Below are positions 25,047 to 53,596 of a stretch of 64,000 bases of DNA, one piece after another. The translations under genes and the position numbers were made by a program. Source of the DNA: a bacterium (GTDB lineage Bacteria; Electryoneota; RPQS01); contig JABWCQ010000002.1 in NCBI GenBank assembly GCA_013360195.1, forward strand, positions 62,932-126,931, given 5' to 3'. A model generated the notes under the pieces. The model had not been told where the DNA came from. It saw only the letters and a program-made list of their open reading frames with translations, and did not search any database. Position 1 is the first letter of the stretch; every line of letters starts with the position of its first letter.

Positions 25047-25067
25047 CCAGATTCATTAGGAGAATTC

Positions 25068-26754: not shown

Positions 26755-26760
26755 TGAAAA

Positions 26761-29814: not shown

Positions 29815-29821
29815 TTCCTCA

Positions 29822-32800
29822 ATGCAATTGATTTCCCTTCAGATTTCTGGCTTCAAGTCATTCGCGAATGAGACAAAAATCCAGTTCGCACCCGGAGTAA
29901 CTGGCGTCGTCGGGCCGAATGGCTGTGGCAAGTCAAATGTAGTTGATTCACTTCGATGGGTACTTGGGGAACAACGATCTTCCGTGCTCAGAGGTGACCG
30001 CATGGAGAGCGTCATTTTCAATGGTACAGCCAAGCGTAAAGCCCTGAACCTTGCAGAGGTTAAAGTCAAGTTTGACAATTCATCAGCTAGAATCAATCTT
30101 CCTTATAGCGAAATCGAGATTGCACGTCGACTCCATCGCGACGGAACAAGTGAGTACCTAATAAATGGGAATTCATGCCGGCTACGAGACATTACTGACA
30201 TGCTTCAGGACAGTGGTCTCGGACCGAATGCGTACACGATTCTCGAACTTAAGATGATCGAAGATATACTTCGTGATGATGGTGAGGGACGTCGACAATT
30301 ATTTGAAGAAGCGTCAGGGATCGCGAAGTATAAGTTGAGACGGCGCCAGGCGCTTGCAAAACTTGCTCAAACCGATGAAGATCTACTTCGACTTGCCGAC
30401 ATCATCTCCGAAGTTGAAAGGCAAGTGGCATCACTGAAGAGGCAGGTTGGTAAGGCTCGGCGATACCAGGAGCTTTCTGCCGAATTGAAGAAGGTAGAAA
30501 TCGCGTTTTCCGTTCATGAGTTTGATCGATTGCAACGTGAAGTGGAGCCACTGCGGCATGCTCTTACAGATGCCCTTGGTCACGCGGAAGGCAGCACGTC
30601 GCATTTGCGTCAGTTCGAGGCAAAGGTCGAATCGCTTAGACTTCAGCACATGGAAGGCGATCAGCGATTGGCAGAGTTGAGAAGTGAACTGCAAGAAACA
30701 GTTAGTCTCATATCCGCCTTGGAAGCCGAGAAGGCGGGAGCAGAAGCACGGCTGTTCGCGGCAAAGGAAGCTCTGGATCGGGCACAGCGTCAAATCGTAC
30801 TTGCCAATGACCGGTTACAGTCTCTTGCTTCCCGCAAGGATTCGCTAACATTAGATAAAGATCAGACAGAAAAAGAGTTGCGCGAGGCAAAATCAAGGCT
30901 GGAGGCTTCCGAAGGAGATTTCCAGAAATCGCAAGCTGAAATGAAGCGGCTGGAAACTGCTTACCGAGAGGCTGATGCGCAACTTGCCACTTTGAACCGG
31001 ACACAAGCAAGCCTCGAGGGAGAACGCGCTCGCCTACTAGAAGGAATCGCTCGACAGAAAGGCCGTAGAGAATCTGCCCATATGACCCGCGACCAACTAT
31101 CGAAGGAAAAGGTCGACTTAGAGTCCAGAATATCTATTGCAAGCAATCAGGCTCGAGAATTGGCTTGCGATGTTGATCGCTCCGTTAGCGAACTTAATGA
31201 ATGTGAAGCTCAAGGCGAGGATTTGAGGAAGCGTCAAAAAGCACTTGCCAGCAGACTTGACGAGGCTGACCGTCTCTTACACGCAACGCAATCCCACATC
31301 AAGCTCCTTGAGACACTGGACCAGCGCGGCCCGCGAGGAACAGCTCAAATAAGGCTCCTGCGCGACAGATACGACAAGTATCAACTCATCGCGGATCGAA
31401 TTGTAGTAGAAAGCAAGTATAGCATGGCGATTCACGCTGCACTTGGAGGTGCGGCGTACCATCTATTAGTAAATAGCGAGAATGAGCTGCACGAAGCTGT
31501 CAGACTCCTGGTTGATCAGGAAGCAGGCAAATGTGGCTTCATGCTCCCATGGGTGGTGTCACAGCATACCGAAGTAGAACTTCCTGCTGGTGTAATCGGG
31601 TGGGCGTCTGGCCTCGTTAGCCTGTCTGAAGATGACCAAGGACTTCTAAACTTGATCACCGGGTGCATTGTAGTCTCTACGTTCAAAGAGGCGCTTCTCC
31701 TCAGGGATTATTTGGCCAAACACAGATTTCGTGCCGTCACACTCGAGGGAGATTGGGTAGATTGGACGGGAGCATGTTTTGCAGGTAGCGTGCAGATAGA
31801 CGCGCCAACGGATCTCGGGCTCAAGCAACATCTTGAAAGCTTGCAGATGAGCTTTGAAGATGCGCATAGGGATAAGGAGCAAGTGCTTGAACAATCTGGC
31901 TTGCTTGCAAGTGAATTCGAAGTCTGGAATTCTAGCCGAAGCGAAATCGCCGGTGTATTAGAAACCAGGAAGGCAGCACTCGGAGGTATAGAATCTGAGG
32001 TGCTTAGGCTGAACACTCTGCTGCATGCACTTGAGGAACGGGACAAGGCGGCACTCCAGCTGATATCCGAAAGCGAGGAGGCTGAACAAGTTCTGAGGAT
32101 GGACGTTGAAAAGCACCTCACTGCAATCAACGAAAGCAGGAGTGCGATTGAGAGCGCACAGAAGCTGATTGAAAAACTGTCGGAAGATGTTTGGCAGGCG
32201 AGACAAGCGAATGACAATTCAAGAGATTCATTCCATGAGCATGCGCGCCATGTTGAATCGATAATTCACAGAGTTCAACTATTAGCTGCAGAGGAGGATA
32301 GACTCTTGAGCAGTGAGAGTGAGCTTGTTGAATCAATCGCGTCAAGCCGTAATCAAGCAGAGGCTGCGGCAAATGTTATTTCTTCGACAGAAGTTAGATT
32401 AAAAGATATCACAGCAGAGCTCCGAACATTATTCTTAACTCGTGATGCGAGATTGCGCGTTGTTGAAGACGCACAGAGACAGAGGGATTCATCTACGTCT
32501 GAAGTGCGTCAATTGGAGGATCAGTTGAAGCGACTGCGAACAAGTCGTGAAGCGGCGCTTGATGATCAGCGAAAGATAGAGGTTTCAATTGCAAAGATGG
32601 AGGGTGAGATCGAGTCCTTACTGACGAGCGCAAGAAATCAGCACGGGATAGATCTTGCAGCGGATTTTGAGAATGCAAAGCTCTCAGAGTATCGCGGTGT
32701 TGAGTCTTCAGCCGACCTTATCGCAGAGCTTCGGGGAAAAATCGAGAGTTTAGGTACGGTCAATCTTCTTGCTGTTGAGGAGTACGACAAAGAGACTGCG

Positions 32801-33385
32801 AGACTTGAAGGCATTCTCGCGAATCGTGCAGATCTGCTGGCCGCAAAGGCCACACTAGAAGAGACCATTGGCAAGATTAACGAGACTGCAGAGGCGAAGT
32901 TTCTTCACACATTTGAAGCTGTTCGCGCGAACTTCCAGTCGCTTTTTACCGAGTTTTTCCCGGCCGGAGAGGCTGATTTGATACTTAGTGGAAAGGATTT
33001 ACTGGAAGCTGATATTACCATGTGGGCAAATCCTTCCGGAAAGAGACTGAAGTCTTTGACATTAATGTCTGGTGGTGAAAAGACAATGACGGCGATCGCT
33101 TTGCTTTTTTCGCTGTATCAGGTCAAACCTTCTCCATTTTGTGTTCTTGACGAGGTGGATGCGCCATTGGACGATGCAAATATTGACCGTTTCACTAGAA
33201 TGATTCATCGTCATAGCGACCATACCCAGTTCATCATGATAACCCATAACAAGCGCACCATGGAAATTGCTGACAACTTGTATGGTGTCACGATGCAAGA
33301 GGAAGGCGTTTCGAAAACTGTTTCAGTTAGGCTAATGAAACCTGAACCCGCAATTCCAGCGGAGGCACGAGTGGCCGCAACCTGA
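29822..33385 (+). CDS. smc: chromosome segregation protein SMC
   Basis: Walker A 'GPNGCGKSN', long coiled coils, hinge, C-terminal 'LSGGEKTMTAIALLFSLYQ...VLDEVDAPLDD'. Confidence 0.9.
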   Translation: MQLISLQISGFKSFANETKIQFAPGVTGVVGPNGCGKSNVVDSLRWVLGEQRSSVLRGDRMESVIFNGTAKRKALNLAEVKVKFDNSSARINLPYSEIEIARRLHRDGTSEYLINGNSCRLRDITDMLQDSGLGPNAYTILELKMIEDILRDDGEGRRQLFEEASGIAKYKLRRRQALAKLAQTDEDLLRLADIISEVERQVASLKRQVGKARRYQELSAELKKVEIAFSVHEFDRLQREVEPLRHALTDALGHAEGSTSHLRQFEAKVESLRLQHMEGDQRLAELRSELQETVSLISALEAEKAGAEARLFAAKEALDRAQRQIVLANDRLQSLASRKDSLTLDKDQTEKELREAKSRLEASEGDFQKSQAEMKRLETAYREADAQLATLNRTQASLEGERARLLEGIARQKGRRESAHMTRDQLSKEKVDLESRISIASNQARELACDVDRSVSELNECEAQGEDLRKRQKALASRLDEADRLLHATQSHIKLLETLDQRGPRGTAQIRLLRDRYDKYQLIADRIVVESKYSMAIHAALGGAAYHLLVNSENELHEAVRLLVDQEAGKCGFMLPWVVSQHTEVELPAGVIGWASGLVSLSEDDQGLLNLITGCIVVSTFKEALLLRDYLAKHRFRAVTLEGDWVDWTGACFAGSVQIDAPTDLGLKQHLESLQMSFEDAHRDKEQVLEQSGLLASEFEVWNSSRSEIAGVLETRKAALGGIESEVLRLNTLLHALEERDKAALQLISESEEAEQVLRMDVEKHLTAINESRSAIESAQKLIEKLSEDVWQARQANDNSRDSFHEHARHVESIIHRVQLLAAEEDRLLSSESELVESIASSRNQAEAAANVISSTEVRLKDITAELRTLFLTRDARLRVVEDAQRQRDSSTSEVRQLEDQLKRLRTSREAALDDQRKIEVSIAKMEGEIESLLTSARNQHGIDLAADFENAKLSEYRGVESSADLIAELRGKIESLGTVNLLAVEEYDKETARLEGILANRADLLAAKATLEETIGKINETAEAKFLHTFEAVRANFQSLFTEFFPAGEADLILSGKDLLEADITMWANPSGKRLKSLTLMSGGEKTMTAIALLFSLYQVKPSPFCVLDEVDAPLDDANIDRFTRMIHRHSDHTQFIMITHNKRTMEIADNLYGVTMQEEGVSKTVSVRLMKPEPAIPAEARVAAT

Positions 33386-33403
33386 TCCCGAAGGAGAAGC
33401 CAA

Positions 33404-34813
33404 ATGACACGCAAAATGCTTTGTTGGCTGTTCACACTAGCAGTCGGCATCAGTTCCCATGGTTTATGCGGGGGGATTGATGTCGATTTTGTTTATTTTC
33501 TTGGTGAAGATAGTCTCACATACTGTGAGGTCTACACAGGAGTTCAACGCAGTGAACTTGTCTATATAGCGACACAAGAGGATAGTTCATACGCGCAATT
33601 TTCATTAATCACTACAATAGGAAGAAGTGACTCGATTCTCATTTCGGACACGCTTGACACGATTGACAAGACAAGTCGCACCGAATCTCATTCGGGCGGA
33701 GCATATTTCCCATACATTTCTCGGTACCTTCTGTTTCCAGGCAGCTATGACCTTACGATTGAATTGGTACAAGATAGTGCCGACAACTATGACTGGACGG
33801 AGATAGGACTTGAAGTTCCGTATGTGTCAGCGCAGGCTAGCTTATCTGGAATCGCGCTTGGCGCTGAATTGGCATTCGCAGCTGGTCCATCGGCGTTCAC
33901 AAGAAACGGGCTGCGCTTTGTCCCGAACCCATCAGGATTCTACGGCGCGGAGCTGCCTATGCTCTATTATTACCTTGAATGTTATGGACTGGATACTTTA
34001 GGTCCGGTCGAAGACTCGATAATGGTTCAGCGGCGTGTGATAGACGGCGAAACTGGCCAAGACGCAAAGCAGCCCTCCTTGCGGAAATATGCTCGTCCCG
34101 GTGAGTCACTCGTGATTGCAGACGGATTTCCCGCGTACACTTTGAGGACTGGCACATACATACTGTCTATTCAAGTTGAAGTTCCAAATCAAGCTGCCAG
34201 AGAAGCGATGAAGAAGTTCTACGTGTATCGCAGGGAAGATACCGACTTCTTATCCGCTGACGTAGGAAATAGAGCTTCAAGCATGATCAATTACAATTCT
34301 GAGGGTGGCATCCTGGAGACGATTGATCCAGATAGTGCGCTGGAATTGTTGCACTACCTCTTGACGAGACAGGAGATGAGGCGTGCAAGGGACATGGACT
34401 CAGAAGGAAAGCGGAAGTTCATTGCAGACTTCTGGAAGCGACGCGGTCCAGAAGAGGCTGACGCTGCCAATGTCCATTATTCGCGAGTTGCAGAAGCGAA
34501 TAGGCGCTACAGTTTTCTTAACCGAGAAGGTTGGAGAACTGACCGTGGACGTGTCTTCATTTTGTACGGTGAACCTGATTTTGTCGACCGCCGATATGCC
34601 GATGCTGCAGGACTAGACCACGAGATTTGGCACTATGACAAGATAGAAGGAGGAGTTCTCTTTATTTTCGTTGACCAAGCCGGCTTTGGCGACTTAACCC
34701 TTGTGCACTCGACAAAGCGTGGAGAGATTTACAATCCCAACGCACTAATTGTGAAGCAGAACCAGAACCCGGCTTCAAAACTCATCGAACAGGGGAGAGG
34801 TCTTCGTGAATGA
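33404..34813 (+). CDS. secreted GWxTD-domain protein
   Basis: Signal peptide 'MTRKMLCWLFTLAVGISSHG'; C-terminal 'REGWRTDRGRVFILYGEPDFVD...HEIWHYD' matches the GWxTD motif family. Confidence 0.55.
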   Translation: MTRKMLCWLFTLAVGISSHGLCGGIDVDFVYFLGEDSLTYCEVYTGVQRSELVYIATQEDSSYAQFSLITTIGRSDSILISDTLDTIDKTSRTESHSGGAYFPYISRYLLFPGSYDLTIELVQDSADNYDWTEIGLEVPYVSAQASLSGIALGAELAFAAGPSAFTRNGLRFVPNPSGFYGAELPMLYYYLECYGLDTLGPVEDSIMVQRRVIDGETGQDAKQPSLRKYARPGESLVIADGFPAYTLRTGTYILSIQVEVPNQAAREAMKKFYVYRREDTDFLSADVGNRASSMINYNSEGGILETIDPDSALELLHYLLTRQEMRRARDMDSEGKRKFIADFWKRRGPEEADAANVHYSRVAEANRRYSFLNREGWRTDRGRVFILYGEPDFVDRRYADAAGLDHEIWHYDKIEGGVLFIFVDQAGFGDLTLVHSTKRGEIYNPNALIVKQNQNPASKLIEQGRGLRE

Positions 34814-35570
34814 AGTTGCAGTTCACGCCCAGAATCTTGGTAAAACCTATCGTAATACGGTAGGCAGCAATGTAATTGGTTGTCAGAATGTTGAGTTTCA
34901 GGCGCACTTTGGGTCAATCTTTGGAATACTTGGCACGAACGGGGCAGGCAAAACTACAACACTTCGAATGCTGGCCACGATGCTGCAACCAACGCAAGGA
35001 ACTGCTACTGTCGCAGGTCATGACTTACGCCGCAGTCCGCAGGAAGTGCGAAGGCAAATTGGCTTTCTATCCGCATCTACCGGGGTGTATGGACGGTTAA
35101 CCGCGCGTGAAATGCTTTCTTATTTTGCAGCTCTGCATGGGTTCGAGAGAAGAGCGTCAGAGGCTCGAATAGCCGAGATTGCTGATCTATTAGACCTGCA
35201 CGAATTCTTAGACAGAAGGTGTGAGAAACTCTCGACTGGACAGCGTCAGCGCGTAAGTATTGGAAGAACAATTTTGCACGACCCTCCGGTTCTGATTTTT
35301 GATGAGCCAACGAGTGGACTGGACATTCTTGCCGCTTCACAAATCGTGAATTTCATGCGCGTAAGCAAAGAAAGGGGGAAATGTGTGCTTCTTTCAACTC
35401 ATGTGATGAGAGAGGCAGAACTCTTATGTGATGAAATGATATTGATCCACCAAGGTCTGGTAAAAGATAGGGGAAGTGTTGCGGACCTGCAGCGTCGCCA
35501 TGAAAGCGTGCAGCTGGAAGTCGTGTTTCTGCGTGCAATAGGCGAGGATTCGTCGGCATTTCACAACTGA
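34806..35570 (+). CDS. ABC transporter ATP-binding protein (ABC-2/GldA-like), no cognate permease adjacent
   Basis: Walker A 'GTNGAGKTT', signature 'LSTGQRQRV', Walker B 'LIFDEPTSGLD'; start overlaps the GWxTD gene stop by 8 nt. Confidence 0.85.
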   Translation: MNEVAVHAQNLGKTYRNTVGSNVIGCQNVEFQAHFGSIFGILGTNGAGKTTTLRMLATMLQPTQGTATVAGHDLRRSPQEVRRQIGFLSASTGVYGRLTAREMLSYFAALHGFERRASEARIAEIADLLDLHEFLDRRCEKLSTGQRQRVSIGRTILHDPPVLIFDEPTSGLDILAASQIVNFMRVSKERGKCVLLSTHVMREAELLCDEMILIHQGLVKDRGSVADLQRRHESVQLEVVFLRAIGEDSSAFHN

Positions 35571-35572
35571 AT

Positions 35573-36310
35573 GTGGCACCAGCTTTGCGCAATCTCCGAA
35601 TCATGCGCAAACTCGATAAGATTCAAGTTTTTCAAGTATCTACAGGTTTCTTTGGCGCCTTTGATTGTGCTGCAGTCCAGACACTTCTGCTCGCGCTGAA
35701 GTGTCGAGACGTGAATACGTACTTTCATAGTATGCGTGTTTCTGGTCTGGCATCCGAAATGGGCAGCATTCTTGGCTTAAGTGCAAGAAGTCTCGAGGAG
35801 TTGGCAATCGCCGGACTTTTGCATGACATCGGCAAGATCGGATTGCCAGACAGTGTGCTCCAGAAGAGCGGCAGGCTATCAAAGACCGAGAGGGGAGTCG
35901 TGACTCAGCATCCGGAATTGAGCGCAAGTATTATTGCACCATTGCCTGGATTTGAGCGAGTAAGAGAAATTATTGTCCAGCATCACGAGCGATTCGATGG
36001 ATCAGGTTACCCGGGTATTCGAAAAAGTGACGGGATCATGATGGAAGCTCGGGTTCTGACAATTGCCGACGCATTCGATGCAATGGTGTCGGAACGCCCC
36101 TATCGCGATCCTCTTTCGAGTCGCGAAGCATTGGCACAGATTGAACGTGAAGTGGGTACTCAGTTCTGCCCGGTTGGCTTTCAAGCTTTGCTCGAAGTCT
36201 TTAGGGAAGGACAACGACTGGAACCAGGCCGCCAAAGGGAAATCCGGACCGGGATTGACTCCCTGGTCACAACTCTTGGAACCCCCAAATCATTAACGTT
36301 ATGTTTATAA
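35573..36310 (+). CDS. HD-GYP domain phosphohydrolase (putative c-di-GMP phosphodiesterase), no receiver or sensor domain
   Basis: 'HSMRVS', 'LLHDIGKIGLPD', 'HHERFDGSGYPGIRK' HD and GYP motifs; starts 2 nt after the ABC gene stop. Confidence 0.8.
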   Translation: MAPALRNLRIMRKLDKIQVFQVSTGFFGAFDCAAVQTLLLALKCRDVNTYFHSMRVSGLASEMGSILGLSARSLEELAIAGLLHDIGKIGLPDSVLQKSGRLSKTERGVVTQHPELSASIIAPLPGFERVREIIVQHHERFDGSGYPGIRKSDGIMMEARVLTIADAFDAMVSERPYRDPLSSREALAQIEREVGTQFCPVGFQALLEVFREGQRLEPGRQREIRTGIDSLVTTLGTPKSLTLCL

Positions 36311-36578
36311 TAAATTTAAGATTCGAGTTTTGAATCGGATTTTTTTCGATTTCCAGTGAGCAGTGTTGCGCAAGCCATTGCGATTTATTATATTTATCAA
36401 TTGTTGGAAAGTGAATTTAGGAGTTCAATGTCCCTTCGTTAGAGGTTTTCGAGGCTCTGCCTTATTTTACGTTTTTGTATTGTAAACGACACCTCTAACA
36501 CGGCGTGCATTTGCTCCGGTTCGTTGCTTCTATGGCCGAATGGACAATCCGCTCCGTTCGGTTTTTTCATTTCACCTA
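36311..36578 (+). promoter_or_regulatory. long AT-rich structured leader/promoter region upstream of the porU-like gene
   Basis: 268-nt non-coding region, the largest in the window; contains inverted repeat GTTAGAGGT(36438-36446)...ACCTCTAAC, a T7 run and TATTATATTTAT. Confidence 0.3.
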
Positions 36579-39500
36579 ATGTTGAAAACTAACTCGCTCA
36601 GAATACGCGCTATAGTGTTGGTTTGCGCAGTGTTTGCTTGCCATGTCTCATCTGCAAGTGAAGTACGAGTTGTTTCTTCGGACGATTCGGGTGTTGAGTT
36701 TGTCTGGTCGTCGGGAATTCAATCCGCGAAACTGCACGGCACGAGTGATCTTCGGGCGGTATTGAGATCTGCGGATTGGATTACCCAATCTGGTGCTTTG
36801 ATTCCCGTCATTAAGTTGCTTGTCGCTTGTCCGACGGGGTCGACACCGCGACTGGAGGTTCAGAGGGTTGAAACGCGTTTGTTAAACATGGACCTTCCTC
36901 CAGCTGAGGAGCTGCCCGAAGTGTCCAGTGCAGTGAACACCGATGTTCGGATTTCTGGTGTTGAACAATGGCGCGGCTTCACGATTGCCCATATCGAAAT
37001 TAGGGCGGCCAGTCCATCTTCGCAGGGGACATCCGTACTTGAAACAGTGCATGCGACCGTGCGTTTTGTTGGCGGTTTGGATCAAAAGGGTCCGTTCGCC
37101 CGCGAAGAAAAGCTGCTGAAAGACTTGGTTATAAACGGTCGGGAAGCGACCCACTGGTGGACTCCTAGTTCCCGGATTTTGCAGAGTTTGGATGCTTCGA
37201 ACGAAGCTTGGCCCGACATTCAGCTTCACAAACTGGCCGTCACAGAGACAGGCTTCCACGTGATGACCGCCGAATGGCTTCAAGTTCAGGGGATTCAAGT
37301 CGTCGGTGTAGCATCGGACCGGATTCGAATGTTTGGGAACGGGGGGAGGCTTCTGCCTGCCGGTCTCATAAGCGTCCCCGATTCAGTGTTAAAGGAAATT
37401 TCGATTCTCATTGAAGATGGGAATGACGGGAGTATTGACCAAGGAGACCGAATCATCTTTTATGGCGAAGGTCTAAAGGGTTTTGATTACTGTGACGGGA
37501 GTCTGCTGAACGACCATGGCCATGCAAGTCCCTATTCAATGGAGAACATCTATTGGATTGGGATTGGGGGGGCTGACGACCAGGGACTTCGTATGGACAC
37601 AATTCAGAGTCTCAGTCAAACAGTACCAGTCGATACAGTTCTGGGCCAAGTCTATTTGGATCAGGAACAATTCATCTATGCGGTTTCCGGCTTGCAGTCA
37701 AATTCCGGTGTTGTTTGGTATATGGCAACGCTTGATGCTTCTAGCACACGTACCATCTCAGTCAATTTGGATGCAGTAAGTTCTGGCAGAGGTTCACTTA
37801 GAATTCGCATGGATTCGATATCGGGAAGCGGTAATAACTTCAACGTTTATGTCAACGACACACCGGTCAGCATAGGCGCCTATACAACACCGCTTACTAT
37901 TCAGATTCCTGAAGGAGTATTTCGGACAGGTAGCAATACAGTAAGATTCGAGAATAATACGACCAGGCAGGTCTTGTTGAATTACATAGAAGTTGAGTAT
38001 GACAAGACCTTGCAGTCAGCCACAGGTGTTATTGAGTTTCCGGCGCCGCGTAATCAAACCGGTGCTTTTAGATACGAAACTGGTTTGAATCAGGATGCAT
38101 ACTTGGCAGAAATATCTAATCCCTTGAGTCCGCGCATCGCGAGAGGGTCTATAGTAACAGACTCAAGTTTTGCTACAGGACAACGAAGATACTTTGGCGC
38201 TAATCAAGGGGGCAGCAGATTTCGTACACCGGTATACAGGGGCAGGAAGTCTTTTGACGCAAGCGACTACCAGATGCTTCGTGACCAAGCGAATGAGGCC
38301 GGTATAGTGATAATCACATACGATGACTGGTACGACGAACTTGAGCCGCTCATTGCCATGCATGCCCAGTATGAAGAAGAGCCTCTTAAGGCTGTTAGAG
38401 TTAAAATCTCGCATATTTATGATGAGTTCTCTTGGGGTGTGAAGGATCCGACAGCAATACGAAATTTCTTACGCTATGCACACGAGAATTGGCGTGGCCC
38501 TGCAGGAAACGCTGAGTCTCCAAGGTACGTGTTGTTCGTCGGCGATGGAGATTATGACTACAGAAATCTCACTTCAAGTTCTGACGATAATTGGATTCCG
38601 CCGTGGGAGAGTCTCGGCACGTGCACAGACGACTACTATGTGGACTTTGATGACTCGGAGTCTTTGCTTGACATGATGTCGGGTAGATGGCCAGTGCAAT
38701 CAGCCTCGGAAGTCGAAGCAATCGTTGAAAAGACCGTAAACTATGCGTTAACGCCTCTTTATGGACCCTGGAAGAACACCGCGACTTTTGTGGCTGATGA
38801 TGAATGGAAAAGTGGATTCTGCAGTGAAGATTTTCACACCGAGGATTCCGAAGACTTGATTAACGACGTATTGCCGGAGTACTTTACGTTCAGAAAACTG
38901 TACCAGATTCTCTATCCTTTTCGTCAATCGACCTCGACCTCACTTAAACCTGACGGTACTAGGGACCTGATTGAAACAATTAATTCCGGCACTCTCCTTG
39001 TCAATTATGTTGGTCACGGGAATGAACGAGTGTGGACAGATGAGCAACTGTTCGTGATGGATAGAGATTTCCCGCTGATTGACAACCATCGACTTTGGCC
39101 GGTAATTGTTGCCGGAACATGTACGTGGGGAGGTTTTGACCGACCCAACGAAAGATGCTTCCCTGAACTTCTTCTTGGTGCCGATGATATCGGATCTATT
39201 GCTTGCATTGCCGCGACGAGATTCACATTCGTTTCGCAGAATCAGCTTCTGACAGAAGAGTTTTATCGTGAGATATTTCGACAAGGGATCGAAATGCGGC
39301 GGAGTCTGGGCGAGGCTCTGCTTCTTGTCAAGCCGCTTCGGGCTGACAATAAGCTTTATCATACGCTTGGGAATCCAGTCTTGCGGTTGGCAACTCCAGA
39401 GTATTTCGCTCACGTGGATCAGAGGGACGACTCCTTGCAGGCAGGTGGGCTTTTTCAGCTGAGCGGGTTTGTCTCACGCACAGATGACTCAAATGAGTCA

Positions 39501-40532
39501 CACCAGTCTCCTCAGCGTCGGAACATCGATGAGGACGTGTGGGCGGACTTTCAGGGCATCGTTGAGGCACGAGTATTTGACTCCGAAGACTCAGCAGCTT
39601 ACTATTTCCCAAATCCTGCGAATTGCAGTGTTCCCTTGCAAACACCATTTTATTATGGGCTGCCTGGCAATGCAATTTTCCGCGGCAGGTCTTCAATCGT
39701 AAATGGAAGATTTAACGTTGTGTTTCGCGTGCCACGCGATATTCAGTATGGTGGCGAGAATGCAAAAGTCAGTCTCTACTTTTTTGGAAAATCAGAGAGT
39801 GAAAGTGACTCGGCGGATGGGATTGGCATCGAACAGCCACTTAGGATTGCAAGCGCAGCAGCGGCTGTTACTGATACAGTACCTCCCGTAATCGGTGCCT
39901 GGCTCGAAAATACGTCCTTTCGGTCCGGTGACCAAGTCAGCCGCTCACCGCGCTTAATAGTTCGATTAAGTGACGAATCGGGCCTCAATCTGTCAGGCGA
40001 AGTCGGTCACAAGATAACAGCCCGAATCGATGAAGCCCAAGCAGAGGACATAACGCAGTTTTTCAATTATGACGTAGATAGCTACACAGATGGTGAGCTA
40101 GTTCGAACCATTGGTCCGCTTTCTGAAGGTTTTCATCGCTTGACCGTCGAAGCTTGGGATTCCTTTAACAATCTGAACTTACAGACCTTGGATTTTGTCG
40201 TGGGTCAGCAGGCCGAAGAGGGATTTGCAATAAACGACGTCTTAAACTGGCCGAACCCGATGTCATCTGAAACTTATTTCACGTATTCTTTAACGCAGGA
40301 AGGGACGAGAGACGTCAGGATACGTGTTTTCACAATCAGCGGAAAGCTGGTGGCTGAATTAGACGGCCTTGGGACCAGGCAGCTTTACAACAGTAATAGT
40401 GATCGGCCGTGGCTCGGCCGAGATGATGAAGGATATGAGTTGGCGAACGGAGTTTACTTCTACAAGGTGATTGCCACACATGAGAGAGGATACTCAGCCG
40501 AGGCGACCGGTAAGCTCGTTATTTTGCGATAA
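36579..40532 (+). CDS. porU: C25-family (gingipain-like) cysteine peptidase with T9SS C-terminal domain, PorU-like sortase candidate
   Basis: Signal peptide 'MLKTNSLRIRAIVLVCAVFACHVSSA' (start set at ATG 36579, in frame with the 36540 ORF); C25 His/Cys dyad context 'VNYVGHGNERVW' and 'VIVAGTCTWGGF'; 'YVLFVGDGDYDYR'; C-terminal 'WPNPMSSETYF...NGVYFYKVIATHERG...KLVILR' sorting domain; immediately followed by a porV-like gene, as in P. gingivalis and F. johnsoniae. Confidence 0.6.
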   Translation: MLKTNSLRIRAIVLVCAVFACHVSSASEVRVVSSDDSGVEFVWSSGIQSAKLHGTSDLRAVLRSADWITQSGALIPVIKLLVACPTGSTPRLEVQRVETRLLNMDLPPAEELPEVSSAVNTDVRISGVEQWRGFTIAHIEIRAASPSSQGTSVLETVHATVRFVGGLDQKGPFAREEKLLKDLVINGREATHWWTPSSRILQSLDASNEAWPDIQLHKLAVTETGFHVMTAEWLQVQGIQVVGVASDRIRMFGNGGRLLPAGLISVPDSVLKEISILIEDGNDGSIDQGDRIIFYGEGLKGFDYCDGSLLNDHGHASPYSMENIYWIGIGGADDQGLRMDTIQSLSQTVPVDTVLGQVYLDQEQFIYAVSGLQSNSGVVWYMATLDASSTRTISVNLDAVSSGRGSLRIRMDSISGSGNNFNVYVNDTPVSIGAYTTPLTIQIPEGVFRTGSNTVRFENNTTRQVLLNYIEVEYDKTLQSATGVIEFPAPRNQTGAFRYETGLNQDAYLAEISNPLSPRIARGSIVTDSSFATGQRRYFGANQGGSRFRTPVYRGRKSFDASDYQMLRDQANEAGIVIITYDDWYDELEPLIAMHAQYEEEPLKAVRVKISHIYDEFSWGVKDPTAIRNFLRYAHENWRGPAGNAESPRYVLFVGDGDYDYRNLTSSSDDNWIPPWESLGTCTDDYYVDFDDSESLLDMMSGRWPVQSASEVEAIVEKTVNYALTPLYGPWKNTATFVADDEWKSGFCSEDFHTEDSEDLINDVLPEYFTFRKLYQILYPFRQSTSTSLKPDGTRDLIETINSGTLLVNYVGHGNERVWTDEQLFVMDRDFPLIDNHRLWPVIVAGTCTWGGFDRPNERCFPELLLGADDIGSIACIAATRFTFVSQNQLLTEEFYREIFRQGIEMRRSLGEALLLVKPLRADNKLYHTLGNPVLRLATPEYFAHVDQRDDSLQAGGLFQLSGFVSRTDDSNESHQSPQRRNIDEDVWADFQGIVEARVFDSEDSAAYYFPNPANCSVPLQTPFYYGLPGNAIFRGRSSIVNGRFNVVFRVPRDIQYGGENAKVSLYFFGKSESESDSADGIGIEQPLRIASAAAAVTDTVPPVIGAWLENTSFRSGDQVSRSPRLIVRLSDESGLNLSGEVGHKITARIDEAQAEDITQFFNYDVDSYTDGELVRTIGPLSEGFHRLTVEAWDSFNNLNLQTLDFVVGQQAEEGFAINDVLNWPNPMSSETYFTYSLTQEGTRDVRIRVFTISGKLVAELDGLGTRQLYNSNSDRPWLGRDDEGYELANGVYFYKVIATHERGYSAEATGKLVILR

Positions 40533-40563
40533 CAAGAACTGAACATAGAATGCAGGAGAACAA

Positions 40564-41610
40564 ATGAAGAAGCGGATTTTTGCAATCTGCCTGACTTTGC
40601 TGGGAGTTTTCACCCATCAAGTGTATGCTGCGAGTGTAAGTCAAGCAACATTGCTCTTCCTCAAAATTGCACCTGGCGCGAGACCAGCCGGAATGGGCGA
40701 GACCTTTGTCGCCCTGGCAGATGACGCTACTGCGACGTGGTGGAATCCTGCCGGGCTGGCATTTCAGCGCGGTAATGAAGTGACAATGATGTATTCACGT
40801 TGGCTGCCCCAGTTCAATCTTTCAGACCTTTATTACGCGTTTCTGAGCGGCACTTACGAAGTACCTGAATGGGGCACATTTGGAGCGAACATCGTGTTCC
40901 TAAATCTTGGTGAGACACAGCGAACCGGCCCGTCAGGCGAGGCCCTTGGTACGTTCTCATCCTATGAAATGGCGGTGACAGGTACATACGGTGCACTCAT
41001 TGACGAGAACACTTCAATGGGTGTCGGCCTCAAGCTTGCATATAGTAATCTTTCACCTGTCGGTGCAGGTGCTGAGCAAGGCAAAGGAACTGCAACTGCA
41101 ATCGCCGCGGACATTGGCTTGTTGCACAAAGCCACTTTCATGCCTGGCCTCTCGCTCGGAGCAAATTTGTCAAACATGGGACCCAAGGTGTCCTATATCG
41201 ACCGTGCGCAAGCCGATCCTTTGCCAACAACATTGAAATTTGGAATTGCGTACAAGATTCTTGACCAGGAGTATAACAAACTGACCATCGCATCTGACGT
41301 TGACAAGGAACTTGTCAAGCGTGACGAATTCGGTAAGTCAGATGAGTTCTATGAGGCACTTTTCTCGGCCTGGGGTGACGGAGATCTTGTGAAGTCACTG
41401 ATTTGGCACGTGGGTGCCGAGTATTGGTATTCAACTCTCGTTGGTCTTCGCGGTGGTTACTACAATGACCATTTGGGACGGGTATTTCCGTACACGTTTG
41501 GCGTATCTTTGAAATACAGTACGTACCGATTTGATTTCAGTTATCTGACCGCCGGTGAGAATCACCCGTTGACAGACACGATGCGCTATTCACTCTCGGT
41601 GGATTTCTAA
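40564..41610 (+). CDS. porV: PorV/LptO-family outer-membrane beta-barrel
   Basis: Signal peptide 'MKKRIFAICLTLLGVFTHQVYA'; hallmark N-terminal 'FLKIAPGARPAGMGETFVALADDATATWWNPAGLAF'; alternating beta-strand pattern; C-terminal '...YSLSVDF'. Confidence 0.55.
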   Translation: MKKRIFAICLTLLGVFTHQVYAASVSQATLLFLKIAPGARPAGMGETFVALADDATATWWNPAGLAFQRGNEVTMMYSRWLPQFNLSDLYYAFLSGTYEVPEWGTFGANIVFLNLGETQRTGPSGEALGTFSSYEMAVTGTYGALIDENTSMGVGLKLAYSNLSPVGAGAEQGKGTATAIAADIGLLHKATFMPGLSLGANLSNMGPKVSYIDRAQADPLPTTLKFGIAYKILDQEYNKLTIASDVDKELVKRDEFGKSDEFYEALFSAWGDGDLVKSLIWHVGAEYWYSTLVGLRGGYYNDHLGRVFPYTFGVSLKYSTYRFDFSYLTAGENHPLTDTMRYSLSVDF

Positions 41611-41701
41611 ACTGAAAACTCTTGCCTTAATCGGACTTATCGCTGCCTGCCTTTCTGGTTGGTCAGCGCCCGTTTCACATTTCCCGAGCAATCGAGTTCA
41701 T

Positions 41702-44566
41702 GTGAGATCTCTTGACGAGCCTTGGCCGGCCGGTCAGCCTATACGCTTATGTGCTATACGAGTCGAATTTCTGGAGGATAACCTTACCGGAACAACCGGT
41801 ACAGGAAAGTTCAATAGCGGCTTTCCAGATACCCTTACAATTGACCCATTGCCCCACAATCGCCAGTATTTCGAAGACCATCTTGCGTTCATGCAAGACT
41901 ACTTCAATACAGTTTCTAAAGGCATGGTCACCTTTGAACGGCTTGACGTGTATCCGCTCGCACATGACAGTGCCTACACTCTGTCATTCCCTATGTGGCA
42001 CTATAACCATAATTCTGATACGGCTTTGTTGAATCGCCGGCTTGTTGAACTTTTTGCACAATCCACGACCCTGGCTTCATCGGACATCAATTTTGAATCG
42101 TACGATGCAATTCTCGTCTTCCATGCCGGAGTCGGGAAGGACTTCAATATTGGCTTCGACAATACGCCATTTGACATTCCATCCGCCTACATTTCAGAAA
42201 GTGACCTTCGCCGATACAATCTTAACTTACCTTCAGGTGTAACGCGTGGCCTGATCCTTCCTGAAGGTCAGAATCAAGACGAAACCCTCCAACTTGGCGT
42301 CGAACTATCGTTGAATGGTGTCATGATCAAGCTTTTTGGCAACTGGCTCGGCATGCCTGACCTCTACAATACAGAGACAGGCGCGAGTGGCATCGGAAGG
42401 TGGGGTATGATGGATCAGGGATCGGGCAATGTTAATGCAATGGTACCTGCGTATCCCGATGCTTGGTCCAGGGTGTTCATGGGGTGGTCAACTGCAAACA
42501 CAGTGCTTCCTGGCGGAGCCGTGGACACAATCTCCTTGGCACGTCCCGGTAGCGATTCCATTCCAGATATAGTGAAGATTCCAATTTCCGCGAACGAGTA
42601 TTATCTGCTTGAAAACAGGAATGCAGATGCAGATTCGGTGGGTCATGTCGCACTTTATGATCGCGACGGGCGACTAATGACCGTTGACCTCCTCGGCAAT
42701 GTGTATGTTGAGACTGACTTCAAGATACCAGTGCGTGCATCACACTATGATTTTGGAATTCCAGGAAGCGGCATCCTCATATGGCATATCAATGACAGTG
42801 TAGTATCAGCGAATTATTCAACAAATCGAATAAATGCGAACCCGCAATACAGAGGTGTCGATCTGGTTGAGGCCGATGGGTCACAAGATATTGGCCGTGA
42901 ATACGGGTTTGCGACCGCGGGATCCGGCACAGAGTTAGGAGTGCAGGAAGATTGCTGGTACCGCGACAACCGAACGCATAGAAACGCTAACGGAGGCACG
43001 GCATTCGTCAGGTTCAACAACAATACTCGTCCGGCAGCCGTGACTAACGATCAAAGAAAGTCGTACTTGTCGATCGAGAATTTCAGTGATATAGACTCAG
43101 TAATGTCGGCTATGGTGTCGAATTCGATAGCAATGGACGGTTTTCCTGTTCAGCTTGGCACGAATTCTCCGCACAATTGGTCACTTGCCGATATTGATCT
43201 AGACGGCAAACAGGACGTATGCTTTCAGAAAGATAATGAAATTCGTGGAATAGGTAGTGATTCCGGCTTGACCGTACTGAAACGATTTGAAGCGAATGTC
43301 GAGTTCGACTTGCGAGCAAGCCGTTATCCAATAGATGTGAACGATAACGGACACAATGAGATATGGTATGTCGCTGGAAATGACTCATTGGGATTCGTGG
43401 AAGTTACAAATGTTGGTACAATTCAGCGAAATGCTGCTTTGCCAGTAAGTTCGTTTTCAATTGCTAGATTAGAATTCTTGGATACCGATCCAAATTTGGT
43501 AGTGCTCTTTCAAGGGAATGGGACCATGGATTTTCCGAGAAGAGTCACTATTTTCAATTCAAGCCTGAACCTTATTCTTCAGCAGGAAGTCGATTGGGGC
43601 GGATTTCACGGGTTGTCAAATCTGACGTCAGTAGCAGCAGGCAATGTCCTTTTCTGGAGCTCAGACAGGGCACTGCTCTTGGACATTTCAGATTCCGCTC
43701 GCGTTGTTTGGAATGTTGTGTTACACAATTCAAATCAACCCACGATAATCTCTGGACCGGAATCATCGGAGATCTATTTCCCAAATAACGGCTATGTCAA
43801 CTTCGATTCTGGGGCGTTGATTTGTCCAGCTTCAGAATGCCTAGAACCTATAGCCGACTGGGATCAGGACGGTGTAATTGATGGTGGCGGTTCGCGCGGC
43901 GCAGATCACACGCCACGAGAGGACTTTCCTTTCCAAAGTTTGAACATGGATGAGCTGTTTGACCTGAATTTTGATGGTTTTCCAGATCTCTTGCGAGTTA
44001 CCAATGAAAGCAGCAGTTTAACCGATCTCGAAAGCTCGACTGTTCATGCTTTTGATCATCGAGGAGCGCGATACTCCGATTTTCCACTTGTAACATTAGG
44101 AAGACCAACGATCGTCACCCTGGACACTACTGAGCGCAGGTACTATGCGATAACTGAATACCGCAGCGGCAGTCACCACGTAATTGGTCTGCTTCGGCTT
44201 CCAATAGTGCCTGAAGGTCAATCAGCCAAGTCCTATGCAGACGTCGAGAACAGGATAATTTTCCTCGGTCCGTTGCAGAATGAAGTGCACAGCAGGGAAG
44301 AATTCGTATATGTTTGGCCAAATCCGACAAACGCAATTGCTAACTTTAGGATTACATTGCCTTATGCCGCTTCAGTCGAAGCAAAAGTGTTTGATCTTGC
44401 GGGCCGATGCGTGGCAAACTTAAGTACGGAATCAAGCTACGCAGGAACTTTTGACCTTCAGTGGGATACAGTTACAGTTGAGAGTGGAGTGTACTTGGGA
44501 AAAGTATTAGTACATGGTGGTGGTCAATCCCGCGAGAGCACCATCAAGATTGCTGTAGTGAAATGA
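41702..44566 (+). CDS. large exported protein: M6-(InhA)-like domain with substituted zinc-site residues + FG-GAP/VCBS-like repeats + T9SS C-terminal domain
   Basis: 'IKLFGNWLGMPDLYNTETG' aligns to the M6 'HEFGHxLGLPDEYD' zinc site, but H/E/H are K/L/N; FG-GAP-like 'DIDLDGKQDV', 'DWDQDGVIDGGG', 'NFDGFPDLL'; C-terminal 'FVYVWPNPTNAIANFRITL...GVYLGKVLVHGGG' sorting domain; the ORF-track GTG start gives no signal peptide, but the in-frame upstream extension encodes one. Confidence 0.5.
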   Translation: MRSLDEPWPAGQPIRLCAIRVEFLEDNLTGTTGTGKFNSGFPDTLTIDPLPHNRQYFEDHLAFMQDYFNTVSKGMVTFERLDVYPLAHDSAYTLSFPMWHYNHNSDTALLNRRLVELFAQSTTLASSDINFESYDAILVFHAGVGKDFNIGFDNTPFDIPSAYISESDLRRYNLNLPSGVTRGLILPEGQNQDETLQLGVELSLNGVMIKLFGNWLGMPDLYNTETGASGIGRWGMMDQGSGNVNAMVPAYPDAWSRVFMGWSTANTVLPGGAVDTISLARPGSDSIPDIVKIPISANEYYLLENRNADADSVGHVALYDRDGRLMTVDLLGNVYVETDFKIPVRASHYDFGIPGSGILIWHINDSVVSANYSTNRINANPQYRGVDLVEADGSQDIGREYGFATAGSGTELGVQEDCWYRDNRTHRNANGGTAFVRFNNNTRPAAVTNDQRKSYLSIENFSDIDSVMSAMVSNSIAMDGFPVQLGTNSPHNWSLADIDLDGKQDVCFQKDNEIRGIGSDSGLTVLKRFEANVEFDLRASRYPIDVNDNGHNEIWYVAGNDSLGFVEVTNVGTIQRNAALPVSSFSIARLEFLDTDPNLVVLFQGNGTMDFPRRVTIFNSSLNLILQQEVDWGGFHGLSNLTSVAAGNVLFWSSDRALLLDISDSARVVWNVVLHNSNQPTIISGPESSEIYFPNNGYVNFDSGALICPASECLEPIADWDQDGVIDGGGSRGADHTPREDFPFQSLNMDELFDLNFDGFPDLLRVTNESSSLTDLESSTVHAFDHRGARYSDFPLVTLGRPTIVTLDTTERRYYAITEYRSGSHHVIGLLRLPIVPEGQSAKSYADVENRIIFLGPLQNEVHSREEFVYVWPNPTNAIANFRITLPYAASVEAKVFDLAGRCVANLSTESSYAGTFDLQWDTVTVESGVYLGKVLVHGGGQSRESTIKIAVVK

Positions 44567-47500
44567 GAGCAATTTTGCTGTATCTACTTGTTGTCGCGAC
44601 ATTCTCGTCGATTGCCGTTGCGCAAACTGCAGAGTTTAACAGGCCACATTTGGAGTGGATGTCGTTTGAGACGGAGCATTTCATAGTACATTACACGAGT
44701 GGTTTGGAAGATGTTGCCAACATGGCAGCGGATATTGCGGAAAGAATTCATGATCCGCTCTGTCAGGTATACGACTACTATCCCGACACGAAAGTGTCCC
44801 TCATTTTCTCCGACGTTGACGATATTGCCAATGCCGGTTCTTACTTTCAATCAAACAAGATTAAGTTCTACGCAACCTCGATGGCTTGGGACTTTCGTGG
44901 TACACATAATTGGCTGCGAAACGTTGTTACACACGAGTATACGCACATGATCCAGCTTGGCGCAACAAGAAAGTGGTCACGGCGCTTCCCAGCTTTCTAT
45001 GTGCAGGCCTTAGGTTACGAACCCGAACGGCGACCCGACGTTCTATATGGCTACCCGAATACACTTATAAGCTGGCCACTTCCGTCTGTTACAATCCCAG
45101 CTTGGTTTGCTGAAGGAACTGCGCAGTACCAATTTGACGGTGCAGGTTACGATTATTGGGACAGTCACCGCGACATGTTACTTAGGCAGTCAGTCCTTTC
45201 AGATCGTCTTTTGACCTTGGAGGACATGGGTTTTTTTGGAAAAACGAGCCTGGAATCCGAGGGTGTGTACAATCAAGGATTCTCTCTTGTAAAGTATATT
45301 GCAGATAGAAGCAACGGAGTAGAGACTCTTGGCCAGATTTCACGAAAGATGTCGTCGCTTTTACCAGTTACGTTGAATAAGGCTATTGAAAGTGTAACAG
45401 GAAAATCCGGCACGGATTGGTACAACGAGTGGAGTGCTGAACTTCGCACAAAGTATGGTGAAACTAAGAGCATGCTTCTACCATACCTTTCCACATTTGA
45501 TACTCTCGAGAAGTCGGGATTCGTCGGTGCTTATCCTGAATTCTCGACCGATGGTAATAGCCTCCTGTTTATATCAAACTCCGGTCGAGAGTACTTTGGA
45601 CAATCATCTCTGTACTGCTACAATCGACAACTTGATTCCATTTCACTGATTGCACCATCCGTCCAAGGCAATGCATGCTGGGTGCGTGGGGATAGTTCGG
45701 TAGTTTTTACAAGAAGAACGTCAGACAATCCGCATGGTGCGCTGATTTATGATATTTATGCATACGACGTAAACAATAAGCGCGAAGCGCGACTTAGTCG
45801 AGGATTGCGAGCGGAGCATATTGATGTGTCACCTGATGGGAAATACCTGGCATTCACGATTAACGAAGCTGGCCGAAGAGAAATTGCAATTGCCAAGATG
45901 CCTGAACTTGGCAAGTCAATGACCCCATTCGGCAAGGAATCAATACTGTATCGTTTGCCCACATTGCCTCATGAGCAGTACTATTTGCCAAAGTGGTCGC
46001 CGGACGGGCGCAGAATTGCTGCAGCACATCATCTTGATAAGGGACGCAACATACGTGTCTTCCTGTTTGATTCAACATCCGTAGAATTGACTCTGGATTT
46101 GGAAGTGAGCGGAAAAGGAGCCGAGCTTAGAGATCCATCTTGGGCTGCTGATAACAGACATTTATATGTCTCTTATGATGAGAGCGGCATTCAAAACATC
46201 TATAAGCTGTCACTGGAGAATGAGTCTCTTGAAAGGTTGACCGTGGTACTCGGCGGCGCTCATTACCCTGACGAGAACAACGGCAGTTTAGCTTTTGCAG
46301 AGTTTTGTAATGACGGTTTCCGGATTTGCGTAATGGATTCAATCACTCCTGTACGACTTCCACGGAATTCACTTGACTTGGCTGTTTCAAATTATATGGC
46401 AGGTATACCGCGCAATGAGGATATTCCAAGCCCCGTCATTCGAAATGCCTCGCCCTATCGTCCACGATTTGAATCGCTGTATTGGTTTCCGCGAATTGCT
46501 TTTGACTACAATACTTTCAAGCCAGGCACTTATCTCGTTTTGAATGATGTCCTAGACAAGATGACATTTATTGGCGGCGCTGCGCTTAATCAAAAGCGTG
46601 AATATGACATATATGGTCTCGTGGAGTACAAACAGTTTTATCCCACAATATTTGCAGAATACTTTAACATACAGAGAAGACTCACTTCATTTTTCGCCGA
46701 CTCCTCGCGAATTATTGGTGAGGTTGAAGGACCTGATGGCATCAATCCGATATATGATGAGTATAGAATCAGGTATAGATACAATTTAAATGAAGTAAGT
46801 GTCGGACTTGGCGTCCCCCTCAGTTCTGGAACGAACATTAAGTCACGGGCAACATATGATCAGTATGTTGCACACAACCGATTCGACGATGAATCGAGTG
46901 TCAGCCTTACCTATTTCAGAGGGTGGTCATGGAAGACAGGTGTATATACGGATTCCCGCCGCCCAGGTTTGTACACGGAAATTAGTCCAAACAGTGGCTA
47001 TCGAGGCTATTTTGAATACACGAGAGCAAACCATGACTTTATCAGCGATATAGAGATTGGTGGTGATGCCATTGGACTGCGCGAGATATACGACCCCAAT
47101 AACTATGGGCTCTTTGAACTTGGCCTTGAAAAATATTTCAAGTCTCCTATCCACGACCATACAGCTGAAGTTCGCCTTAAGGCTGGATACATGGATGAGA
47201 ACGTAGATCCATTTTTCTATCAATATGCCGGGGGCTTGCCGGGGATGCGGGGCTACTCGTTCTATAGCCTTGGCGGGACTCGAACCGCGGTTGCGACACT
47301 AACGTATCGCTTTCCGCTCATCAGCAGAGCGGCTTTGGGATTGTGGCCGCTTTCGCTCAACAGGGTTTTTGGATCGCTATTTGTTGATGCTGGAGATGCA
47401 TGGGTGGGTGACTACACGGACCGCACGATAAAGAAGGACATCGGTGCAGGTATTCGGGCTCAACTTCATTCCTTCTATTCTTATCCAACTGCAGTTTCTA

Positions 47501-47673: not shown

Positions 47674-47686
47674 CAAGAAATAATAT

Positions 47687-48670: not shown

Positions 48671-48701
48671 GAGTCTACTTCCACACCAAGAGGATAAGCA
48701 G

Positions 48702-49316: not shown

Positions 49317-49325
49317 TTAATAGTT

Positions 49326-52089: not shown

Positions 52090-52090
52090 A

Positions 52091-53517: not shown

Positions 53518-53596
53518 CAACTCCCGAACTCATTGTTATATTATGTTTTTGCCCCTTCCCCAAAAGGACCTGAGCTGATAAGTTTGTTTCGCACCA

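Follow-up and report, generated by a model that had tools for sequence, protein, structure and literature searches.

A porU–porV pair heading a conserved six-gene module behind a structured leader, probably the part of a type IX secretion system that sorts and attaches cargo

A stretch of 64,000 nucleotides from contig JABWCQ010000002.1 (assembly GCA_013360195.1; "the window" below means this whole stretch) contains a gene for a C25-type cysteine peptidase followed directly by a gene for an outer-membrane barrel. The question raised by this locus is whether the two genes encode PorU and PorV, the sortase and its shuttle in a type IX secretion system (T9SS), and how much of the surrounding DNA belongs with them. 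The locus is probably that part of a T9SS in which cargo is sorted and attached; porU and porV head a six-gene module located behind a structured leader. The pair itself is ordinary, and close relatives are already annotated automatically; the parts deserving specialist attention are the conserved six-gene module and the leader RNA of porU.

The first gene of the module encodes a protein that matches the NCBIfam PorU model NF033707 with 633 bits (cutoff 420), residues 216–1316 being aligned with positions 7–1095 of the 1095-position profile, and Pfam Peptidase_C25 with 261.7 bits (residues 577–937). An earlier note on this DNA, made from the sequence alone, had described a C25 peptidase of 1317 aa with an intact His/Cys context, and this description holds: both motifs, NYVGHGNERVW and VAGTCTWGGFD, are present, and the residues H813 and C848 are invariant among 14 homologs, with identities down to 23%. 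Among experimentally determined structures, Porphyromonas gingivalis PorU (PDB 6ZA2, E 2.9e-58) is the best match; the alignment extends from residue 598 to the C-terminus, with GHGNE opposite GHGGP and GTCTW opposite ATCDF. The C-terminal sorting domain claimed in the same note stands in part; the C-terminal domain (CTD) aligns with that of 6ZA2 up to residue 1154 of 1156, but the sorting-domain model TIGR04183 gives 21.5 bits, just under its cutoff of 23. Homologs with 54–74% identity occur in metagenome-assembled genomes (MAGs) labelled "bacterium" or "Calditrichaeota bacterium" and carry the NCBI name "type IX secretion system sortase PorU". The start chosen by gene callers, ATG 36540, would yield a protein of 1330 aa (stop codon TAA at 40530–40532), whereas the 1317-aa version from ATG 36579 has a clean signal peptide. 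Since a terminator-like hairpin overlaps ATG 36540, ATG 36579 is the better start and 36540 is unlikely. These comparisons confirm the product as the T9SS sortase PorU; its peptidase activity is a prediction from the intact catalytic residues.

The PorV/LptO-type barrel reported to lie 31 nt further on was also found, together with the motif GMGETFVALADDATATWWNPAGLA quoted for it. The start codon of porV is preceded by AGGAG, located inside the spacer that follows the porU TAA. The protein matches the PorV/PorQ family model NF033709 (284.1 bits, cutoff 90), the Pfam PorV family PF19572 (78.7 bits, cutoff 27) and the structure of Flavobacterium johnsoniae PorV in the SprA–PorV complex (PDB 6H3I_F, E 1.5e-25), so that the family-level check proposed for PorV gave a clear match, as did that for PorU. 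PorV is 88–92% identical to its counterparts in three relatives (loci L001, L002 and L012), which is the highest conservation among the proteins of the region; in the same genome pairs the identity is 65–69% for PorU, 61–67% for SMC, 74–79% for the ABC ATPase and 50–52% for the M6-like protein encoded after porV. This pattern points to unusually strong constraint on the predicted barrel. By its model and structure matches, the product is a PorV-family protein, most likely the functional PorV. The adjacency of porU and porV, likened earlier to that in Porphyromonas, is documented there; P. gingivalis PG0026 and PG0027 are separated by 75 bp, and PorV anchors PorU, a surface C-terminal signal peptidase (PMC5445135). 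The loops of PorV touch the substrate within the SprA pore (PMC10994853).

The island of about 13 kb postulated in the earlier note corresponds to a module conserved by synteny, which recurs with unrelated flanks. It comprises porU, porV, a gene for an M6-like protein, a gene for a 1036-aa outer-membrane protein and two DUF5683-like genes, and occupies positions 36579..49316 (12.7 kb). The spacer between porU and porV is 31 nt long, that between porV and the M6-like gene 1 nt if a CTG start of the latter is right; the stop codon of the M6-like gene overlaps the start of the 1036-aa gene (ATGA), and gaps of 13 and 31 nt follow. With such spacing, the module looks like one translationally coupled unit, and its genes would be co-transcribed.

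Synteny was assessed by comparing the window proteins, using tblastn, with 80 PorU-bearing loci (numbered with the prefix L), one genome per species. porV follows porU in 56 of the 74 loci with enough sequence. Among the porU–porV loci, the M6-like gene is next in 50 of 51, the 1036-aa gene follows in 35 of 41 and a DUF5683-like gene in 33 of 37. The order SMC–GWxTD–ABC–HD–porU–porV–M6-like–Omp85–DUF5683 (two copies)–RmlD is collinear in L001, L002, L004 and L012, and the five-gene core is found in about 35–50 further, more distant species. The carriers of the module include Ignavibacteria-type and other MAGs labelled "Bacteroidota", Latescibacterota and the lineage of the window itself; porU is solitary in the retrieved KSB1-labelled representative genomes and in the Calditrichia, Marinimicrobia and Cloacimonadota loci. 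The genomic context of homologs of the 1036-aa protein extends this picture. All six genes occur in candidate division LCP-89 and in Ca. (Candidatus) Electryonea clarkiae with wholly different flanks, and a close relative whose copy of the 1036-aa protein is labelled KSB1 by NCBI is collinear with the window over more than 20 kb. In Ignavibacteria loci the first three proteins pass the equivalog cutoffs of NCBIfam (PorU 987 and 896 bits, PorV 265 and 292 bits, M6-like protein 812 and 781 bits). The porU–porV–M6-like arrangement is thus implicitly known to the NCBI curators, and the window contains a divergent version of it.

The gap 5′ of porU, 268 nt long, is the widest intergenic gap of the region, and the hairpin within it is the strongest terminator-like site there. 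Alignment with relatives showing only about 65% protein identity revealed invariant blocks, which make up a leader of outer pairing, helix and terminator-like hairpin (Table 1); the predicted fold of the window's leader has a z-score of −2.9. The consensus of the helix is TTCGTTAAAGGTT ... ACCTTTGACGAA, its arms also being given as TTCGTTARAGGTT and ACCTYTRACGAA. A regular-expression search for the hairpin, (G)CCGAAYG–loop–CRTTCGG(C) followed by Us, located it directly 5′ of porU in 15 loci, besides variants, and at two other places in 1.6 Mb; its carriers are the lineage of the window and many Ignavibacteria-type loci. The motif of the 5′ arm of the helix gave 51 matches, 22 of them on the coding strand and no more than 1.2 kb upstream of porU. 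Altogether, the leader is present 5′ of porU in at least 30 species of distant lineages (for instance at 9826–10005 of L001, 9795–9969 of L002, 9231–9336 of L043 and 9136–9238 of L067), including the cultured Ignavibacterium album (L063, 9462–9524).

The pairing of the leader was examined by covariation in 18 species. Because MAFFT misaligned the 3′ arm in full-length leaders, which contain inserts of 17–79 nt, the inserts were excised and the four arms were aligned concatenated. Pairing is possible in 87% of the relevant cells of the alignment, as against 77% in column shuffles and 33–49% with slid partners, and 15 of the 26 pairs are changed on both sides; none of 500 shuffles reached any of these measures. 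Examples of compensatory change are AGAGG/CCTCT, AAAGG/CCTTT and ACAGG/CCTGT in the helix and, for the terminator stem, C:G versus U:A. Two points tell against the helix. Each of its 3′ arms was picked as the best complement, which inflates the paired fraction, and the shuffle test is significant individually in only 9 of 21 sequences; what supports it is that the chosen arms are homologous and that compensatory changes occur. The inner pairs of the terminator were assigned from their position, which spares them the best-complement bias. A covariance model built from the concatenated arms gave 33 matches at E ≤ 1 in 1.5 Mb, 31 of which are located directly 5′ of porU in the same orientation; its scores are modest, and in leaders with long inserts it mostly finds the terminator half. 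Rfam 15 contains no match to the leader (the window at gathering thresholds, positions 36300–36600 at E ≤ 10 and six Ignavibacteria-type loci, with tRNAs only), and a literature search found neither a description of it nor anything connecting T9SS with a riboswitch at porU.

A conserved leader peptide was considered and rejected. In close relatives AGGAG is followed by the four-codon frame ATG-TCC-CTT-CGT-TAG, but the Ignavibacteria leaders lack the ATG while the pairing partners are kept; the element was therefore treated as an RNA structure. The shortest leaders consist of two hairpins and contain, within the terminator loop, AAAGGTC(T), a complement of the helix's 3′ arm; this hints at alternative pairing. 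By its conserved position, structure and compensatory changes, the leader is a candidate new cis-regulatory RNA, and it may act as a regulatory switch.

The explanation that competes best with this reading takes the element as an independent small RNA (sRNA) gene with its own terminator, or as a protein-binding site or promoter region in DNA. In Ignavibacteria loci, a −35/−10-like pair before it and a strong hairpin with a U-tract after it give the element the appearance of a self-contained transcription unit, and the sequence conservation of the stems exceeds what pairing needs. However, the distance between the U-tract and the start of porU is only about 5–25 nt, which leaves no space for a separate promoter; both helices show compensatory changes, which favour RNA, and the spacing of the arms, varying between 17 and 79 nt, is unlike that of a dimeric operator. 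An sRNA gene or DNA site is accordingly considered unlikely, and the cis-regulatory RNA is preferred. A broader proposal, that the porU operons of many non-Bacteroidia members of the Fibrobacteres–Chlorobi–Bacteroidetes (FCB) group, among them Ignavibacteria-type groups and the Electryoneota-like group of the window, are both controlled by an undescribed leader RNA (helix and CCGAAYG/CRUUCGG terminator) with a riboswitch-like or antitermination function and followed by four genes for unrecognised sorting parts of the T9SS, is tentative, with its two halves together falling slightly short of an even chance.

Table 1. Positions of the features discussed, in window coordinates
Feature	Position	Strand	Remarks
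Tetratricopeptide repeat (TPR) lipoprotein	5319..7595	+	758 aa; lipobox VHGGC, then AYYNTFYN; weak PorW/SprE-like match
Lamin-tail-domain (LTD) protein	12240/12378..14081	+	LTD 65 bits; CHU_C/type B-like C-terminal domain
Conserved 5′ leader of porU	36412..36578	+	about 170 nt; outer pairing, helix, terminator-like hairpin
Leader, outer pairing	36420–36423 with 36513–36517	+	GGAG with GCTCC
Leader, helix	36434–36448 with 36489–36503	+	5′ arm CTTCGTTAGAGGTTT; 3′ arm ACACCTCTAACACGG
Leader, terminator-like hairpin	36534–36563	+	GGCCGAATGG...CCGTTCGGTT; then U-tract, ending about 10 nt before ATG 36579
porU, T9SS C-terminal signal peptidase/sortase	36579..40532	+	1317 aa; signal peptide, C25 at 577–937, H813/C848, putative C-terminal sorting-type domain
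porV, PorV/LptO-type outer-membrane barrel	40564..41610	+	348 aa; signal peptide; family models and PDB 6H3I
M6-like metalloprotease, predicted inactivated and T9SS-dependent	41612..44566	+	M6-like domain, FG-GAP-type β-propeller, type A sorting domain
1036-aa outer-membrane protein	44563..47673	+	signal peptide; HExxH domain (clan MA-like) about 30–310; TolB-like propeller; Omp85/BamA-like barrel
DUF5683-like membrane protein	47687..48670	+	327 aa (323 aa by gene callers); motif SLIVPGTGQLY
Second DUF5683-like paralog, shorter	48702..49316	+	204 aa; motif SLLIPGWGQY (translation and homolog alignment)

Several observations weigh against the locus being the sorting end of a T9SS with a coherent six-gene module. 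Genes for SprA/Sov, PorK/L/M/N and PorP/T are all missing from the 64-kb window. PorV scores 202.3 bits with the strict equivalog NF033710, short of its cutoff of 250, and the M6-like protein scores 415 bits with NF052323 (cutoff 600), matching it over residues 12–473 only, i.e., in the N-terminal half. All genes between 13 and 58421 are on the plus strand, and co-direction therefore says little about the limits of an operon; a scan of 35.5–50.5 kb for promoter (sigma-70) and terminator consensus sequences yielded the same counts as shuffled sequences and was uninformative.

Other parts of the window bear on whether the system works. The 758-aa TPR lipoprotein matches PorW/SprE collinearly with 98.8 bits (cutoff 250); judged by this weak match, it may be a second T9SS component, and the window has no other candidate besides it. 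The further sorting-domain proteins announced by the earlier note are present. The C-terminal domain of the LTD protein (FTPNGDGIDD...) matches the CHU_C-type model with 28.3 bits (cutoff 27) as well as FlgD_ig, and the M6-like protein matches TIGR04183 with 27.2 bits (cutoff 23); with a type B-like domain in the former and a type A domain in the latter, both types of sorting domain occur in the window. T9SS genes have already been noted in FCB phyla beyond Bacteroidota (PMC11285876). The working T9SS asserted in the earlier note is here a presumption, drawn from the intact sortase, the conservation of PorV, the sorting-domain proteins and the related phyla.

The locus could instead be a remnant in which PorU and PorV are kept and the functional translocon is gone, as in Chlorobiota, which lack SprA (PMC12611786). 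The absence of core genes from the window fits such a remnant, and T9SS is not mentioned in the published descriptions of Ca. Electryoneota that were examined (including PMC10439189), the phylum to which the host probably belongs. Nevertheless, both catalytic residues are intact, the conservation of PorV is very strong (88–92%), several sorting-domain proteins lie within the same 64 kb, the possible PorW/SprE-like lipoprotein has its lipobox followed by CAYYNTFYN, and the architecture of the operon is conserved together with its leader. A remnant is thus regarded as improbable.

Still less probable is that the C25 protein is a secreted gingipain-like cargo of the T9SS and the barrel a generic FadL/PorQ-like porin, neighbours by chance. 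C25 is also the family of the gingipains, gingipain R is a weak match to the window protein (E 1.5e-5), the CTD of PorU resembles the sorting domain of a cargo, and the barrel stays below the PorV equivalog cutoff. However, the match to NF033707 is end to end and above the cutoff, the alignment with P. gingivalis PorU reaches the last residue, the PorQ model NF033711 gives only 86.7 bits (cutoff 220), porU and porV are neighbours in 56 of 74 loci, and Propeptide_C25 has no Pfam match in the window protein. A paralogous PorU2/PorV2 sorting system, suggested by weak matches to NF052324 and NF052325, whose accessions adjoin that of the M6-like model (NF052323), is just as hard to credit, since its scores (110.1 bits, cutoff 450, for PorU; 40.3 bits, cutoff 325, for PorV) led to its rejection, as the PorQ score did for PorQ, compared with 633 bits for canonical PorU, and since the M6-like gene of Ignavibacteria adjoins proteins passing the canonical PorU and PorV cutoffs. 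A literature search found no paper on PorU2/PorV2.

The four genes behind the porU–porV pair encode proteins whose roles can be approached through their architecture. The open reading frame (ORF) list, like the gene callers, placed the start of the M6-like gene at GTG 41702 (954 aa, without a signal peptide). The frame is, however, open back to the porV stop codon, and the upstream part codes for (M)KTLALIGLIAACLSGW. CTG 41612, the sole start that this part allows, lies 1 nt after the porV TAA, gives 984 aa and supplies a signal peptide. The arrangement TAA-A-CTG-AAR with the signal peptide is kept in L001, L002 and L012, an ordinary ATG is found in L003, and homologs are 971–988 aa long, consistent with 984 aa. 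The true start is thus probably the non-canonical CTG 41612. Of the earlier description of an M6-like protein with a sorting domain at 41702, the type A sorting domain stands, and the start is almost certainly further upstream. Where M6 enzymes have HExxH, the protein has KLFGN; among more than 50 syntenic homologs, a single one keeps HEFGH, and the others have a degenerate motif. Its homologs contain FG-GAP/VCBS Pfam domains, and the AlphaFold model (AF2; predicted local distance difference test, pLDDT, 82) consists of a propeller and then the sorting domain. PorZ (5M11) is the top PDB match of the model in a Foldseek search (E 4.8e-9). Because the template modelling (TM) score of this match is only about 0.2, it is kept as an architectural analogy and no homology is claimed.

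The 1036-aa protein combines three parts in the AlphaFold model (pLDDT 82.9, predicted TM score 0.82): an N-terminal α/β domain, a propeller at about 313–591 and a barrel at about 640–1011. The Pfam matches are PD40, Omp85 (25.5 bits, cutoff 24) and, weakly, Peptidase_MA_2, and Foldseek relates the model to TolB (E 4e-9) and to the BamA barrel 6FSU (E 2.4e-6). The residues H124, E125 and H128 of HExxH and E184 of WFAEG are invariant across 38 homologs, so that activity of the peptidase-like domain is possible. Neither Pfam nor NCBIfam gave a POTRA match; the model has the peptidase-like domain and the propeller instead. Judging from other Omp85 proteins, the domains N-terminal of the barrel would lie in the periplasm; alternatively, this part may be exported in the type Vd manner. 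The family has more than 2470 homologs in FCB-group metagenomes, labelled "PD40 domain-containing" or "hypothetical". To our knowledge, there is no characterised Omp85 protein with a peptidase/TolB-propeller/barrel architecture. One paper on the β-barrel assembly machinery (BAM) contained no link to this Omp85-type protein.

The two DUF5683-like paralogs share a PGxGQxY membrane hairpin. The longer matches Pfam DUF5683 with 20.6 bits, below the cutoff, and its LCP-89 ortholog is likewise faintly marked; the shorter occupies the corresponding place in close relatives as well as in LCP-89 and Ca. Electryonea. In several phyla both paralogs are conserved as the last genes of the module.

On the model of F. 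johnsoniae and P. gingivalis, PorV would bind the CTD of a cargo protein at the SprA/Sov translocon and ferry the cargo to PorU. PorU, a predicted surface C25 cysteine peptidase held on PorV, would cut the sorting domain, and would then release the cargo or move it onto a lipid or glycan anchor. The M6-like/propeller/CTD protein and the peptidase/propeller/Omp85 protein would probably be accessory subunits or a dedicated client of PorU–PorV; a PorZ/PorQ-like arrangement of this M6-like and Omp85-type pair is one possibility by analogy. The module would be transcribed through the structured leader, where the hairpin just before the porU start suggests conditional read-through, i.e., attenuation or antitermination.

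The host is an uncultured FCB-group bacterium, probably of Ca. Electryoneota, a phylum assignment that draws on the labels of matching genomes rather than on phylogeny. Proteins of the window are identical to those of an NCBI MAG (locus tag HUU59_01715) and of Logan assemblies. The best locus in the collection of species-representative genomes belongs to "Calditrichaeota bacterium isolate HK-STAS-AABM5-4", and AABM5-125-24 is another name for Ca. Electryoneota, a phylum that belongs to the FCB group and stands near Zixibacteria and Calditrichota (PMC10439189). The earlier guess of a taxon outside Bacteroidetes is plausible in view of such labels (Calditrichaeota or simply "bacterium"). The remaining content of the window is ordinary for a chromosome and includes mtaB, guaB, purB/C/Q, psd/pssA, gatA/B, smc, sucC/D, ndk and a glycosyltransferase cluster. 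A poly-γ-glutamate locus on the plus strand (53597..56386; PgsB 398, PgsC 128 and TIGR04332 226 bits) is collinear in the close relative L085. The plus-strand genes of 13..58421 are followed by five minus-strand genes at 58516..63630 (glycosyltransferases, a polysaccharide deacetylase and a flippase-like protein), and the sign of the GC skew flips at about 58 kb, where the gene strand switches.

The pair adds one more FCB lineage, probably Ca. Electryoneota, to those with T9SS sorting genes, which is incremental. The module nominates four uncharacterised proteins as T9SS-associated, one of them widespread (more than 2400 homologs) and of unusual architecture, and these are candidates for cargo processing or anchoring outside the well-studied Bacteroidia and Flavobacteriia. 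The leader RNA offers a first handle on the regulation of the sorting machinery in these lineages.

Among known systems, the nearest are P. gingivalis PG0026/PG0027 (LptO) and F. johnsoniae PorU (Fjoh_1556) with PorV. They share with the window pair the families defined by the same hidden Markov models, the His/Cys dyad and, probably, the retained CTD of PorU, and in all of them the genes are adjacent and co-oriented, with a spacer of 75 bp in P. gingivalis and 31 nt in the window. In contrast to these, the window proteins are only about 25–30% identical to them, the window PorU carries about 215 additional N-terminal residues ahead of the part matched by the profile, PorV falls short of the equivalog cutoff, the host does not belong to Bacteroidota sensu stricto, and the pair is trailed by four conserved genes that are unlisted among T9SS components in the literature examined. 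The Ignavibacteria-type cluster (the IALB_1370 region of Ignavibacterium album; NF033707, NF033710 and NF052323) agrees with the window in gene order, also for the Omp85/propeller and DUF5683-like genes; it differs in that its M6-like protein scores about 800 bits with NF052323 against 415 for the window protein, which matches in the N-terminal half only and has a diverged C-terminal propeller. Ignavibacteria-type leaders have the same motif 5′ of porU, while the leader of the window has an additional outer pairing and a longer insert.

PorZ and PorQ of the P. gingivalis attachment complex provide an analogy only. PorZ and, by prediction, the M6-like protein are non-enzymatic; both contain a β-propeller and a T9SS sorting domain, and the gene of each is accompanied by one for an outer-membrane barrel. 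The M6-like pseudoprotease domain, however, is absent from PorZ, and the barrel partnering the M6-like protein is Omp85-like, not PorV/PorQ-like. The 1036-aa protein has the C-terminal BamA-like barrel in common with the Omp85 superfamily (BamA, TamA, TpsB and type Vd proteins, e.g., PlpD), and in type Vd proteins, too, an enzyme-like domain is N-terminal of the barrel. It differs from the superfamily in that no POTRA domain is detected and the N-terminal part consists of an HExxH peptidase-like domain and a TolB-like propeller. Riboswitch expression platforms and the processive antitermination leaders of LoaP and UpxY type (NusG paralogs) are terminator-based leaders. The porU leader, which matches no Rfam family, is likened to them for its architecture: in both, a structured 5′ leader with a terminator hairpin and a U-tract stands before a long operon.

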